Assembly (NCBI GenBank): GCA_025360605.1
Contig: JANYBV010000012.1
Location: 1,380-65,379 of the forward strand
From: Alphaproteobacteria bacterium
GTDB lineage: Bacteria > Pseudomonadota > Alphaproteobacteria > Rickettsiales > SXRF01
Reading direction: 5' to 3'
DNA: 64,000 nt
Positions 1-9,000 of this stretch are shown piece by piece (within the stretch, counting starts at the first letter, position 1; every line of letters begins with the position of its first letter). Position numbers: made by a program.

Positions 1-3000
1 TGGCGCATGGCCGGTAGTCACGCCATGCAGTAGCGGTGGCGATGACGGCGGATAGAGTGGGCATGGCGCGGTATTTTCACCCGTCCAGATCGAACTGACC
101 GGCAGCATATCGGCGAGGTTCAGGGCATTGATAATCGGGCGGCGCACGTTTTCAACGCCGTGGCCCGGCAGGCTGCCCAGCCAGGCATCCATGGTGTTGA
201 TGGTTTCCACCCGTGCGACAAAGCCCAGGCTATGGATGGCTTTTTCTATCTGCCTTGCCGCCATTTCCAGTTTTGCCCGATCTTCATCCATCAGGAGTAC
301 GACGCTGGTGTAATAGCCCGCTGTGGTCATGCCGCTATTGACCTCTGCTATGGCCTCTTCGGCGTCAGCAACCATAGCGGCGGCATCCTGATCGATATGG
401 CCGCTATTGGTGTTAAACACCTGATCAAAGAAGCCCCGGACTTTTTGCCGCCATTTTTTGCGGAATTTCTCTAAATGAGCGGCAGCTTCATGACCGTCCA
501 TGAAAATGAAACGGCTGCTCCAGCGATATTCAACTGGCAACTCTGCCAGCTGCGTCAGGATGCCGGGGTAGGATTCCATGGGGAATCCTTCAATCGATAC
601 CACCTGAATGAATTTGCGGCCGATTTTGGGAATGACACCGCCCCAGCATTCCTGTCCACCAATCAACGCATCAAGATAGGTAGGCGTAGATGGTAGTAAA
701 ACCGGGTGATTCAGACCGGTAATGCAGAATTGCAGATAGCGCAGGAAATCGTCTTCGGTCTTTTCTGTACCGTTTTCGGCAATGGCTCTCCTGCCTTTCA
801 GGCGTTCCATTTTAAAGACCGCCGACAGGTGCGATTCGATAGCACTTACATCCTGCCTGAATTGCTCCAGTATCTGCCCGGTACGCGCCTTTTTATCGAT
901 TGCGTCACTGTCATCATCGAACATCAATTCAACGAATTTAGCTTGCGCTAACAGGGGAGGAAAATAAGTGACTGTGACAACAAAGAATCCTTCGTACATC
1001 GTACCCAGATTATTAAAATAGCGGCGGCGCTCCTCATCGATGGCGCGTGTAATCACATCCGGGAAATGCGACAGGCTTGGGTCGCTGTAGCTGGGCGCAT
1101 TGCGCCGGACTGCATCGACATGCAGCATCCAGCCATTACCAAGTCCCGCCAATGCCTGATTGATCCTGTAAGAGACGATTTCGCGCTGCTCATCGGTGCT
1201 GCTGGCATTATCATCACCCTGATAGAGCCATGACGCCATCAATGCGCCGTTCTTGCCAACGATGATGCCGTCATCCACCACGGAGGCATAGTTAAGCAAA
1301 TCGGCCAATCCGGCATCGCCCACGCGATGCCGGATTAACTTTTTATGCCGGTCAAGCTTTACCAACTGAGCAAACAGGATGAGCAACAAGGCCGTACCGG
1401 ACATGGCCATCAATATGCTAAGGGATATGGTCATTTGTATTGCTTCCCCTGTGCTCTGCTGTTGATACGAAAAGGCGTAGAACGCGCCGGGTAATAACCC
1501 TTGTAACGGCGATGACGCATATAGACCTGGCGCAGATAGGCATCGGATTTGGCCATGAGCCGCAGCAGGTACAGCGATGTGAACCAGAGCAGCACGCCAA
1601 AAATGGTGGCTTTCCATTCCTGAGCCGCGAATACCAGGCTGCCCGCGAGCAGCCCGGTAAACATCACCAGTTCGCGGTCACCGCCCATAAACAGACTATG
1701 GCGGTTTCCGGCGCGGCGGATGGGTATCATGCGGAGGGCCATATACCCCCCTAGGCTATATTAAGCTGCAAGGAAGGCAGTAGCGCAGCTACCTCGGCGG
1801 CATTACCAAAGAAAGTGGTCATCATATTCTGCGCGCCAACTAGGAAGGCCATCACCAGCACAATAAAAATTAGGCTGCGAAAGAAGCCATTGAGGTCGCC
1901 ACCGAAAATCAGTACGCCACCGGCAATGACAATGCCTATGATGGATAACGAGAATGCCACCGGGCCAGTAACGCTATCACGGAGACTGGAGAGCCAGGAT
2001 TCATAGGGCAGCGAACCGCCGGTTGCCGTACCCGCATAGGCTTCATTGCCGACAGTGAGTAGCATCACGGCAAATAATCCAAGGGTGAATAAGGAACGAT
2101 GAGAAGTGTTAGTCATAGATTTCTCCTTTAAAGTTGACGGGTTTGATAATTTCCTGCCGCATAGCCGCAGACTTCTAAAATCTCCTGCACCTTGCGGCTG
2201 CCTTCCGGAGTTTTGGTGATGTGGATCACCAGATGCACGGCCTCAGCAATCAATGGCTCTATGGGGGATGGTGATTCAGGATGCATGCTGATAAGCATGG
2301 CCATCCGGTCTAATCCGGCCTTGGCGTTATTGGCGTGTAATGTTGCCACACCGCCTTCATGGCCGGTATTCCAGGCCATGAGCAAATCCAGCGCTTCCGG
2401 GCCACGCACTTCGCCGACCAGTATGCGGTCAGGCCGCATGCGCAGCGTGGTCTTCAGCAACTGCGTCATGGTGACTTCCAGTGTCGTATGGTACTGGATG
2501 CAGTTTTTAGCGGCGCACTGGATTTCGCCGGTATCCTCGATGATAACAATGCGTTCATCGGCATTTTCTTCCACCATCTGGTGGATAATGGCATTGGTCA
2601 GCGTCGTCTTTCCCGATCCGGTGCCGCCAATGACCAGAATATTACGGCGGTTATGAACCGCTTCAATGATGATATTCTTTTGCTGCGCCGTAATGATGTT
2701 TTGCTGCACATAACGGTCGAGCGAAAATATAGCGCTGGCCTTTTTGCGGATGGCAAAAGTCGGCGCATGTACAATCGGCGGCAATTGCCCGGCGAAGCGG
2801 GAACCGTCCAAGGGCAGTTCGCCTTCCAGAATCGGATTCTTGCGGGTAATGGTCGAATCCAGGCAGGTGGCAATGGTACGCATGACCGCCTCAGCACGGC
2901 TGGGCGACATTTTCCCTATCGGGAGCATGGTTTTGCCAAGGCATTCCTGCCAAAGGATGCCGTCAGCGTTGAGAAGGATTTCGACGGTGCGTGGATCGGC

Positions 3001-6000: not shown

Positions 6001-9000
6001 TCCCGCCAAAGGCAAAGTCGCAATCATCAGTGATAACCCTGCCTATGCACCAATGGGTGATATTGACCCCGATGACCTTCGCATTGCTGGAAGAGTGTTA
6101 TGGTTAGGCCGTCGCGTATAATAGGACGAATCCTACGGATGATAAGTTGAATGATAGGATGCTACCTATCAATATAGTCTCGCATAAAGGAGTGCGAGCA
6201 TATGGTGGAAAAGCGCGTCGGTACTACACGTCAGGCTGCACAGTATTTTGGATTTACAGACAATCATGAATTACCAGATACTCGCACGTTTAAAGCTTGG
6301 GCAGATGATAATAAACTCACTCCTATACATGGTAAAAAGCATCATTTATGGTGGGATTTTAAAGCAATCTCGCAATGCCTTGATAAAAAAAGCGAGATTG
6401 AATCGTCTGAACCTGATTACGATCAAATTTTGAAGGAGAATTTATATGGGGAACGTAAAAGTGGACTACCTCATTATTCGTAGTCATAAGGGCAAGAAAC
6501 GGTATTATTGGAATCCAAATAAACACTACACAGTCAACGGGGCACGCCAGTCTTGCCCTTGGGGATTAACAAAGATAGCTGCTTCCGACGATATAGAGGC
6601 AGCAAGCAAAGCCCAAGAGCTGAATATCGAATTAGAAAAATGGCGTAAGGGTATTGCGCAAGAAATACCAGAAAAAGACAGCATCGGCTGGCTTATTATT
6701 GAGTATAAAAAGAGTACGCGATTTAAAAAACTCGCGGATTCGACGCAGAAGCTTTATCAATGGAATTTTCCTGCAATCGCTAAGGGTTTTCGGGGCATAC
6801 CCGTAGATAAAATTACACGCCAAAGAGCGCTTGCTTTCTATGAAGCACTGGCCGCTACTGGCGGCAAGCGTAAACCCTCCCAAATTATGCAGATCGCGCG
6901 TGTAATGTTTCAATACGGTATGGATAGGGGCTATAATGCAACGAATCCATTTAAAGAGCTTCGGGTGGAGAAGGCGAAGCCCAGGCAAGGCATTATATCG
7001 CCGAACGCTATTGCAGCAGCCAAAGCGAAAGCTTGCGAACTTGGATTGCCTTCCATCGCGCGCGCTATACAAATAGGCTACGACGCTGGCCAGAGGCCAG
7101 GCGATATTCGTATGCTTCCACGTGGGAATTATGATGGACAGTGGCTTCGGATTAAACAGAGTAAAACTGGCGCTATCGTTGATATTCCAGTTTATAAAAT
7201 TCCTTCCCTGAAAGCGGAACTCGATACCATTGAGCATGACAGCCTGTTAATACTGCATGAGGAGCGCACCCGGAAGGCCTATGGCAAGGATATGCTTTGT
7301 AGGCGCGTGCGTGAGGTGTTTGAAGCGGCAGGGCTATCCAGCGATAACCAGTTCAGAGATTTACGTAGAACAGCGGTTGTGCGCCTTGCGGAGGCAGGCT
7401 GTACTATCCCAGAGATATGCTCGATCACTGGCCATAGCTTGCAGGAGGCTACCGGCATATTAAAAGTCTATCTACCAATGAGCAGAACGATGGCAGAGAA
7501 TGCAGCCGATAAAGTGGAAAAGTTGAACAAACGCTAGCTGGCTATAGAACACGCTGTTGAACGAAGTGTAAAAAACAGCCCGCTCTCAAAGTACATATTT
7601 CTATTATCATTCAAAATGGTGCCCAGGAAAAGACTCGAACTTTCATGTTCTTGCGAACGCTAGCACCTGAAGCTAGTGCGTCTACCAATTCCGCCACCTG
7701 GGCCCAATATAACCGTGCCGCCTGAAGATATGCGGATCAAATTCACGGAAAATGGGTTATATCCCCTGCACCGCGCTTGTCAACCCCAGAACCAACCGGA
7801 TGCAATAAGCATGGCTTTAGCGTCTTGCATTCGCTAAAACAGTTGAGTTTTCCGTCTAATCAGTTTTAAATCATTACCTAGCGAAACTAATACAGGTATT
7901 TAGTGTTATGGAACAACGTGTTGTTACGATTATTGGCGGTACCGGATTTGTCGGCCGCTATGTGGTGAAGCAGTTAGCCGCCGCCGGATATACGATTAGG
8001 GTCATTTCCCGCAACCCCAATTCCGCCCTCCACCTCAAAACATCCGGCAACGTTGGACAGATCGTCCTTGAGTCGGCAGACCTGACCAATCCCAAATCGC
8101 TGGTCGGTAAAATCGAGGATTCCTATGCCATCATCAACCTGACGGGCATCATGTTTGAATCCGGCACCCAAACCTTCGCCGGCCTGCACACGCACGGCAC
8201 CGAAAAACTCGCACAAATGGCCAAGGCCGCTGGTGTAAAACGTTTCGTGCATTTATCGGCACTGGGTGTCGATAAAGCGTCTGGCTCACACTATGCCCGC
8301 TCCAAAATGCTGGGCGAAAAAGCGGTGCTGGATGCATTTCCGGAAGCCACTATCCTGCGCCCAAGCGTTATTTTCGGGCCGGAAGATAATTTCATCAATC
8401 TGTTTGCCTGCATGGCAAACCTCTCGCCTGCCCTACCCTTAATCGGCGGTGGAAAAACACGTTTCCAGCCGGTGTATGTCGGCGATGTGGCGAAGGCCGT
8501 AACCGCCAGCCTGTCGCGACCTGAATGTATGGGTCAGATTTACGAACTCGGCGGGCCGGAAGTGTTGACCTTTAAGGAAATCCTGCAATTCACCTTGAAA
8601 ACACTGGGCCTCAAGCGCTTTTTACTTCCCATTCCTTTCAGCGTTGCCCCTGCTGCAGCACTGTGCGCAGAACTGTTCGGAAAAATCATCTACCCGCCTT
8701 TGCTCACGCGTGATCAGGTCAAATTGCTGAAATACGATAATATCGTCAGCACCGGTTCGCAGCATTTCGCCCATCTTGGCATCAGCCCGACGGCGATTGA
8801 AATCGTTGCCCCTGAATATCTGGCACGTTATCATAAGAAAGCGCTTGGGGTAAAATATGCTTAAATTCACGGATACACCACAGCAATACCCTGACGTGAA
8901 AGCGGCGGAATCGCGTAAAAAAGATTTCAATGAAATCTACGCGCAGTTTGACCCAGCTCAGGCGAGCGTACAGGCCTCGCGCTGTTCGCAGTGTGGCGTA

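Follow-up and report, generated by a model that had tools for sequence, protein, structure and literature searches.

The question raised by this locus is whether a phage-type early region and a conjugative transfer operon, lying side by side next to a transfer RNA (tRNA) gene, make up one mobile element or two, and what kind of element this would be. The locus occupies the first 7.7 kb of a 64,000-nucleotide (nt) stretch, hereafter the window (positions 1,380 to 65,379 of contig JANYBV010000012.1, assembly GCA_025360605.1, an alphaproteobacterium placed in Rickettsiales; SXRF01). It is probably the regulatory, replication and integration end of an integrative conjugative element (ICE) some 34 kb long that sits in the 3' part of a tRNA-Leu(CAG) gene, combining a phage-type early module with an IncP-1-related backbone and working by the mechanism set out below. 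Comparison with relatives supports the structure as real and as one element, not two nested ones; from its layout we infer SOS induction, read-through from cro into trb and theta amplification. In what follows, G000 is the source genome (57 contigs, 2.68 Mb in total), C37 the contig of the window, and C7, C14 and C34 are other contigs of G000; G031, G035, G037 and G041 are related genomes, and L070, L096-L098 and L101 are further relative contigs.

Reading from tRNA-Leu(CAG), the order is an integrase gene (int), an xis-like open reading frame (ORF), an S24 cI gene, a divergent cro-like ORF, three small ORFs, rep and trbB-C-D-E-F; the features that the sequence-only reading had named, from int to trbE, were all found in their places. 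From cro through trbE the genes lie on a single strand (-), with every intergenic gap of 66 nt or less. The features are as follows.

1..1434, (-): N-terminal part of trbE, VirB4-type ATPase (CagE_TrbE_VirB, E=2.9e-29)
1431..1742, (-): trbD, VirB3-like (VirB3, E=1.3e-11)
1751..2116, (-): trbC, pilin, VirB2-like (TrbC/VIRB2, E=3.1e-15)
2128..3117, (-): trbB, P-type VirB11-like ATPase (NCBIfam PRK13894, 542.7 bits, cut-off 508; TrbB_P, 442 bits, cut-off 304.55)
3118..3183, (-): rep-trbB spacer, 66 nt
3184..4218, (-): rep (Pfam HTH_36 and DnaA_N; replication initiator phrog_270, E=3.7e-29; O-like PHROG families)
3794..3883, inside rep: putative origin iterons
4264..4503, (-): orf79, no Pfam, PHROG or NCBIfam match; 81-88% identity in G031 and C34
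4430..4840, (-): orf136 (phrog_1123, function unknown, E=3.1e-7), kept in relatives
4783..5169, (-): orf128, no Pfam or PHROG match; 52% identity over 67 amino acids (aa) on the IMG/VR contig L070
5153..5371, (-): cro-like ORF (listed as 5153-5407; the conserved ATG at 5371 is the likelier start)
5372..5455: cI-cro control region
5456..6121, (+): cI-type repressor (Peptidase_S24, E=4.7e-20; phrog_4 repressor, E=3.7e-43)
6202..6483, (+): xis-like ORF, 93 aa, named by position
6446..7537, (+): tyrosine integrase (phrog_1, E=1e-24; Pfam Phage_integrase, 27.0 bits, just below the cut-off of 27.1)
7617..7703, (-): tRNA-Leu(CAG); 7609-7703 doubles as the attachment (att) site of this end of the ICE

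That these genes form one element is indicated by the rep-trbB junction. trbB lies directly downstream of rep in six of six loci (the window, C34, G031, L096, L097 and L098), counting the loci with a Rep of at least 61% identity and visible downstream sequence, and the cI-cro-rep-trbB order of the window is found again in G031 and in metagenome contigs. The gap, put at about 66 bp, measures exactly 66 nt in the window; in C34 and G031 the rep stop codon stands just 21 nt ahead of the trbB ATG, and the 66-nt spacer corresponds by homology to the 3' end of the rep coding sequence in these two copies. The junction leaves no room for an att site or an insertion sequence (IS), either of which would have indicated nested elements; no terminator-like site was found within the gap. 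Logan contigs bridge rep-trbB (3040-3753) and cI-int-tRNA (5409-7687), and they contain two sequence variants over trbB; they come from four DNA runs of one study, possibly the same data as the assembly and so not independent. The metagenome contig L101 (36-2754) has residues 154-246 of rep placed directly against trbI-trbJ-trbL, apparently because a deletion removed everything from the rep 3' end through trbH.

The whole element is present on one contig in G031, a sister species of the same genus. The order there is tRNA-Glu(TTC), integrase, cI, cro, three ORFs, rep, trbB-C-D-E-F-G-H-I-J-L, weak TrbM- and SLT-like ORFs, fic, xre, traF-G-I-J, small ORFs and ArdC, with a complete trb and tra set and a length of about 22-24 kb without cargo. 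Identity with the window is high in cI (90%), cro (88%) and TrbB, C, D and E (97, 96, 98 and 94%), intermediate in orf128, orf136 and orf79 (71, 77 and 81%), and lowest in rep (63%); compared with the remainder of the G000 element, TrbL is 94% identical and TraG, TraI and TraJ are 93, 89 and 94% identical. The G031 integrase is of P4 type (Arm-DNA-bind_3, Phage_int_M, Phage_integrase), and the int and xis of the window have no match in G031. A search for a repeat of tRNA-Glu at the far end found nothing above chance up to the end of the contig. A third arrangement is given by the metagenome contig L096: tRNA-Ile(GAT), a different integrase, a DUF4224 ORF, cI (89%), cro, three ORFs, rep (68%) and trbB through trbL; L097 and L098 show rep followed by trbB. 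Among the copies of the ICE, the integrases, the tRNA targets and the alleles of the Rep N-domain and iterons all differ.

In G000 itself the element is split over three contigs (C14, C7, C37). The sequence-only reading had pointed to the left of the contig for the remaining transfer genes, a relaxase and the second tRNA-Leu end; just 1379 nt lie there, holding the rest of trbE (about 1.1 kb beyond the left end of the window; full frame of 847 aa on C37) and the first 82 codons of a TrbF-like trbF, whereas the tra genes, the relaxase and the second copy of the tRNA-Leu 3' end are on C14 and trbL is on C7. C14 carries, in order, an xre-type gene, traF (S26 peptidase), traG (coupling protein), traI (NCBIfam TraI_MobP_relax, 479 bits, cut-off 250) and traJ (NikA-like), followed by an IS (rve transposase), a truncated histidine-kinase/receiver ORF and a TacA/GNAT toxin-antitoxin pair. 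At about 11775-11840 of C14 lies a 66-nt diverged copy of the tRNA-Leu(CAG) 3' part (window 7609-7674), in direct orientation and including the anticodon loop, and beyond it lie chromosomal genes. C7 ends in trbL and contains two ORFs whose G031 counterparts weakly match TrbM and SLT (TrbN-like), together with a block of genes for copper resistance (a multicopper oxidase, CopB and a CusF/cupredoxin protein). Further cargo (C7 711-6306 and C14 5785-11576) includes DUF4396, a permease and an EamA transporter. A fic gene broken in two ties C14 to C7: its residues 1-84 are at the end of C14 and its residues 130-196 at the start of C7. The reconstructed order is att fragment, cargo, traJ-I-G-F, xre, fic, copper genes, TrbN/M-like ORFs, trbL, gap, trbF-E-D-C-B, rep, three ORFs, cro, cI, xis, int and tRNA-Leu, about 34 kb in all. 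The ORFs of 90 aa or more on C14 and of 70 aa or more on C7 included no further tyrosine integrase.

The mating and mobilisation genes identified in G000 are trbB, C, D, E, a partial trbF, trbL, traG, traI, traJ and traF, together with an oriT-like site: directly upstream of traJ, an inverted repeat is followed by ACATCCTGCCC, which is identical in G031. We take ACATCCTGCCC to fit the nick region of IncP type. The transfer backbone (trbB-C-D-E-F-G-H-I-J-L plus weak TrbM- and SLT (TrbN)-like ORFs, traJ-I-G-F, and oriT beside traJ) is related to that of IncP-1, and the early module appears to be of temperate-phage type, with a tRNA-specific integrase, an S24 cI and a divergent cro-like operon ending in a lambda-O-style initiator with in-gene iterons. 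Structurally, this supports a reading of the locus as an IncP-like transfer backbone to which a phage early region has been joined. The ORFs of the window part, C7, C14 and the complete G031 element included no virion genes, in agreement with the absence of head, tail and terminase genes noted originally, and no recognisable P-type helicase loader, N- or Q-type antiterminators or lysis genes. A PICI-like satellite or a phage-plasmid was considered and rejected on account of the element's own type IV secretion system and relaxase and its lack of virion genes. At the DNA level, the early region matched phage records in the tRNA only, and of the 7.7 kb of the window compared with plasmid DNA the trb part alone matched.

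Rep, whose gene lies at the junction, was modelled with AlphaFold (26-row alignment, mean predicted local distance difference test (pLDDT) score of 70). Residues 1-90 form a winged-helix N-domain and residues 93-160 a linker whose pLDDT stays below 50; two more folded domains follow, a helical middle one and a C-terminal one (residues 254-333). The best Foldseek match of the last was DnaA domain I (4tps; template modelling score of 0.81-0.84 normalised to the target), the helicase loader DciA also being among the matches listed, and the sequence agrees (DnaA_N, E=8.9e-17; 2e0g, E=0.005). Residues 29-285 show 25-30% identity to phage replication initiators. All three domains, including the part resembling DnaA domain I, are kept in the 26 aligned homologues. 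None of 72,556 plasmid records and none of 50,697 phage records covered at least 80% of Rep, and the 57 relatives found in a large protein collection (E<=1e-5) are all from metagenomes or metagenome-assembled genomes, none informatively named; roughly 35 of them are further full-length homologues.

The internal iterons of rep, already noticed in the sequence, were borne out: three direct 22-nt repeats and one inverted copy lie within the DNA coding for the low-pLDDT linker, and the pattern has four matches in the 64-kb window, all at 3794-3883, against a shuffled expectation of 0.06; one or two degenerate copies reach up to about 3941. The lambda origin likewise consists of iterons within the gene of its initiator, O. 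The rep alleles of C34, G031 and G035 each have at least three repeats at the same site, all of which start with GGGRTG while their dyads differ. Between C34 and G031, Rep identity is 57% in the N-domain and 46% in the linker, compared with 91-93% in the middle and C-terminal domains. Such a pattern would be expected if the N-domain of each Rep read its own iterons. No internal repeats were seen in the rep copies of the small islands of G037 and G041 described below.

The C-terminal domain may recruit the host helicase DnaB. The complex predicted for Rep residues 250-344 and host DnaB scored 0.56, the best of three controls scoring 0.00, with contact agreement of at least 86% between runs and a partner pLDDT of at least 79; of 80 solved complexes 58 reach the pass mark used, as do 2 of 110 mismatched pairs, and the scores above it but no higher than 0.60 comprise 7 of those 80 solved complexes and both passing mismatches. 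The prediction lends weak support to this recruitment; its pass may reflect likeness to solved complexes of DnaA or DciA type.

Relatives of Rep outside the ICE place the module in two other settings. None of the four more distant relatives with visible context (G035, L070, G037 and G041) adjoins trb. G035 carries a prophage (L033, 1200-14600) with terminase, portal, head protease and major head genes, an integrase, a rep of 47% identity with in-gene iterons and a cI of 43%; homologous cI and rep genes in a true prophage agree with the earlier view that the early layout is temperate-phage-like, and the Trb genes of the ICE occupy the place where this prophage has its downstream genes. L070, an IMG/VR contig, has a Rep relative of 33% and an integrase. 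G037 and G041 (Rep 39%) contain small islands, at about 8400-12650 of L034 and 7860-11300 of L035, respectively, made up of a tRNA gene (tRNA-Met and tRNA-Thr, respectively), an integrase, rep, a NikA/TraJ-like gene with 52-55% identity to the TraJ of the ICE, and an oriT motif nearly identical to that of the ICE. The 20 kb examined around them showed neither a relaxase nor trb genes, and the islands look mobilisable and could use the relaxosome of the ICE family. A full-length Rep relative occurs in 5 of 44 genomes family-wide and the ICE form in 2 of 44; the ICE family is small and is found in uncultured alphaproteobacteria.

Control of the early region would lie with cI. Inspection of its S24 domain found Ala98-Gly99, Ser140 and Lys177, residues whose roles we take to be those of their counterparts in LexA and lambda cI; no solved structure was matched by sequence at E<=0.001. 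The host genome carries recA. The cI-cro region is 92% conserved among three ICEs. It has TAGG/CCTA repeats and a TTGACC hexamer; 15-16 nt downstream of the latter, a little ahead of the conserved cro ATG, comes an AGTAAT/GTAATT-like hexamer. These features are tentatively read as the cro promoter and its operators. The switch layout, with a small ORF divergent from cI, is conserved. This ORF has no Pfam match and a sole PHROG match (phrog_7669, function unknown, E=4e-4), and it is provisionally called Cro by its position. The xis-like ORF has no Pfam, PHROG or NCBIfam match, and in the Atlas it falls among unnamed viral clusters, HTH_17 appearing at rank 18 only. The description of the three small genes as phage-type stands for orf136, through phrog_1123 (E=3e-7), and in part for orf128, which has its single 52% match over 67 aa on the IMG/VR contig and unnamed bacterial and viral proteins as its nearest Atlas clusters; it is not shown for orf79, which has no family match.

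The mechanism suggested by this layout runs as follows. While the ICE is integrated, cI would keep the cro-side promoter shut. RecA-stimulated self-cleavage of cI would open that promoter, and transcription would pass through cro, the three small genes and rep and carry on directly into the closely spaced trb genes. Int and the xis-like protein would excise the circle. Rep would bind its own iterons through the winged-helix N-domain and bring host DnaB through the DnaA-domain-I-like domain, and the circle would thereby be copied; no separate loader gene was recognised. Finally, TraJ and TraI would nick at oriT, and TraG and the Trb proteins would export the strand.

Several observations weigh against this interpretation. 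Cro, Xis and the three small ORFs are without an assigned family. A consensus promoter scan of the cI-cro region failed to call the proposed cro promoter, which is why that promoter is held to be tentative. A 12-bp hairpin lies over the ribosome-binding site and start codon of trbB in the window copy (z = -2.8) and could block translation from read-through transcripts; it is weaker in both relatives compared and, being strong in the window's copy only, is not taken as a conserved regulator. The trb genes might also be served by an internal promoter; no RNA run was listed as containing window 2000-7800. As for the assembly, trbG-trbJ are missing from G000, where the sole TrbI match belongs to an unrelated system on C13; no two of the contigs C14, C7, C37 and C34 overlap at their ends, and the ICE is not contiguous; the link from C7 to C37 is drawn by synteny alone; the two copies of the att repeat share just 84% identity (over the 58 nt given by BLAST); and the Logan contigs of the four DNA runs showed neither an attP nor an attB junction, their depths being unusable as copy numbers and their loose ends at the tRNA coming from tRNA-Leu genes of other organisms. 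G000 moreover contains a second rep-trbB copy on C34 (L036, 1-2467), with orf128, orf136, orf79, a rep of 64-67% identity with its own iterons, and TrbB of 96%. With a related copy in the same assembly, C7 and C14 could partly belong to the element of C34. C34 and the two trbB variants reflect either two co-resident ICEs or a strain mixture. A partial traI (65% over 197 aa) at the end of another contig (C24, 202689-203279) may come from the second ICE or from yet another element.

Three other explanations were weighed. The one that survives best, although we think it unlikely, is a conjugative plasmid that also integrates, in which Rep and the iterons would serve steady maintenance, rep would be expressed from its own promoter and cI would mainly control int and xis. 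IncP-1 plasmids too have replication genes beside trbA-trbB, proteins with a DnaA_N domain are annotated on Rickettsia plasmids, the Rep and iteron alleles diversify as plasmid incompatibility determinants would, and a region with parA and a dnaA-like gene is described as sufficient for shuttle-vector replication in Rickettsia (PMC3244465). On the other hand, all three copies with visible ends adjoin a tRNA gene and an integrase, the ORFs scanned on C14, on C7 and in the G031 element include no partition gene, and rep sits within the cro-side string of genes with upstream gaps of about 45 nt or less. No circular-junction contig was seen among the Logan contigs, which cannot show absence.

Rather more doubtful is the proposal that Rep is mainly a regulator of the trb operon or a relic, that its repeats are operators, and that the excised ICE is copied by relaxase rolling circle only, like ICEBs1 or SXT. 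The N-domain of Rep is indeed a winged helix-turn-helix with MarR- and TubR-like folds among its Foldseek matches, the G037 and G041 rep copies are without internal repeats, and an MOBP relaxase and oriT are present. Against it stand the conservation of all three domains across the 26 aligned homologues, including the part that resembles DnaA domain I, the match of Rep to PHROG initiator families (E=3.7e-29), and the phased 22-nt iterons with an inverted copy at the same site in four alleles.

The weakest is that of tandem elements, a small phage-derived island or satellite (int to rep) inserted by chance beside an integrase-less Trb island, for which one may cite the small int, rep and NikA-like islands of G037 and G041 and the lower identity between copies of Rep (63-68%) than of the flanking TrbB (87-97%) and cI (89-90%), a difference that points to recombination around rep, but which is very improbable given the same junction at six of six loci, a rep lying 21 nt from trbB without att-site room in two of them, a single integrase and a single pair of tRNA-derived repeats bounding the whole element, and the bridging Logan contig (3040-3753), with the reservation on independence already made.

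The preferred reading, an ICE with a phage-type early module, was then set against known systems. To IncP-1 (RP4/RK2) the element is linked by a P-type TrbB above the NCBIfam cut-offs, the RP4 order trbB-C-D-E-F-G-H-I-J, a TraI/MobA(P) relaxase with TraJ (NikA-like), TraG and TraF (S26 peptidase) forming an MOBP relaxosome, and the inverted repeat and ATCCTGC motif beside traJ. It is nonetheless distant, with TraI 45-46% identical to IncP-1 TraI and trb DNA 65-68% identical, and it sits integrated at a tRNA gene by means of a tyrosine integrase. RP4 also has replication genes, trfA-ssb, beside trbA-trbB, so that a replication module next to trb is not new; what is new is its phage-type nature, its orientation and its cI/cro switch, since upstream of trbB the ICE has this switch and an O-like rep co-oriented with trbB instead of trfA, ssb and trbA. 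The TrfA/oriV replication and KorA/KorB/TrbA control of an IncP-1 backbone were not seen beside trbB, although no search was aimed at KorA or KorB.

With lambdoid early regions the element shares divergent cI and cro, initiator iterons in the linker-coding part of the initiator's own gene, PHROG O-like matches and, in the related host G035, a true prophage that has a homologous module; it differs in having no P-type loader, with the DnaA-domain-I-like domain of Rep instead, and in the trb operon that follows rep. The DnaA-like proteins of Rickettsia plasmids resemble Rep in a C-terminal DnaA_N-type domain (34-38% over about 60-90 residues), although the last quarter of Rep alone matches. Tn4371-family ICEs have a Ti-like order, trbB-C-D-E-J-L-F-G-I, with repA, parA and parB; in the present ICE, trbE is followed by trbF-G-H-I-J-L, as in RP4, and no ParA or ParB was seen among the ORFs of C7, C14 and the G031 element.

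Control of conjugation by a phage-like switch is known from SXT/R391, in which an SOS-inactivated cI-like repressor (the SetR/CroS switch) is described as controlling a divergent cro-side operon and hence transfer (PMC5812530). SXT is further described as replicating from oriT through its relaxase (PMC4489591), and it has a type-F mating system and the activators SetC and SetD, whereas the present ICE is of type T (IncP-like) and has an O-like initiator and iterons in its cro-side operon; neither SetC nor SetD was seen in it, though no search was aimed at them. Among 200 ICEs surveyed by Cury et al. 2017 (PMC5587801), predicted theta-replication proteins are given for 16, of which 15 are type T, and, according to the same survey, no replication had been reported for type-T ICEs. 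Those with theta replicases resemble the present element in their VirB/Trb-type system, tRNA-linked tyrosine integrase and predicted theta-type initiator; unlike them and the Tn4371 family, its initiator is phage-type and under a cI/cro switch. No description of a cI-cro-rep-trbB layout was found in the open-access papers searched, leaving aside the supplementary tables of Cury et al. 2017, which may list similar elements.

The sequence-only reading had overstated how new this is, in view of the theta proteins in 16 of 200 ICEs (PMC5587801) and of trfA-ssb beside trbA-trbB in RP4. Already known are cI/Cro control of ICEs (SXT), theta replicases in type-T ICEs and IncP-1 replication genes beside trbB; the novelty is moderate, and the locus is a clear but not unprecedented case of mobile elements assembled from swapped modules.

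Two further observations concern the window outside these questions. A 16-bp perfect-stem palindrome at 1304-1339, in the 5' part of trbE, is terminator-like on both strands; the regional total of nine such sites, where 8.2 are expected, amounts to chance. Between 32000 and 37000 the G+C content is low (0.415-0.435 compared with about 0.50 elsewhere), starting at tRNA-His and tRNA-Val (32407-32639), and this part may be a further island. Elsewhere in G000, C30 has three tandem VirB6/TrbL-like genes (118.9-122.7 kb) and C13 a VirB6, VirB10 and VirD4 cluster (341-349 kb), an arrangement that we take to be reminiscent of the vir-homologue system of Rickettsiales.

A broader reading of the family, which we offer tentatively and hold to be possible without thinking it probable, is that of a "conjugative prophage-like" ICE lineage in which the whole IncP-like trb operon would be the distal part of a lambdoid, cI-repressed early transcript, and in which a lambda-O-style initiator with a built-in helicase-recruiting domain would copy the excised circle from an origin that it fires within its own gene. 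Copies would exchange integrase modules and Rep N-domain/iteron alleles, which may let two of them (C37 and C34) share one cell, and the int-rep-traJ-oriT islands would be satellites on the same relaxosome. Together with the G035 prophage this would make a three-tier set (phage, ICE and mobilisable island) sharing one replication module.

If the wiring is as inferred, the element would be a compact natural conjugation system under a phage lysis-lysogeny-type switch and with a phage-type theta origin. It would offer a testable case both for whether type-T ICEs replicate autonomously, as has been predicted bioinformatically, and for how phages, plasmids and ICEs exchange regulatory and replication modules. 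For the organisms themselves, it puts on record conjugative elements that carry copper-resistance genes, along with mobilisable islands that match them, in little-known uncultured alphaproteobacteria that also carry a Rickettsiales-style type IV secretion system.

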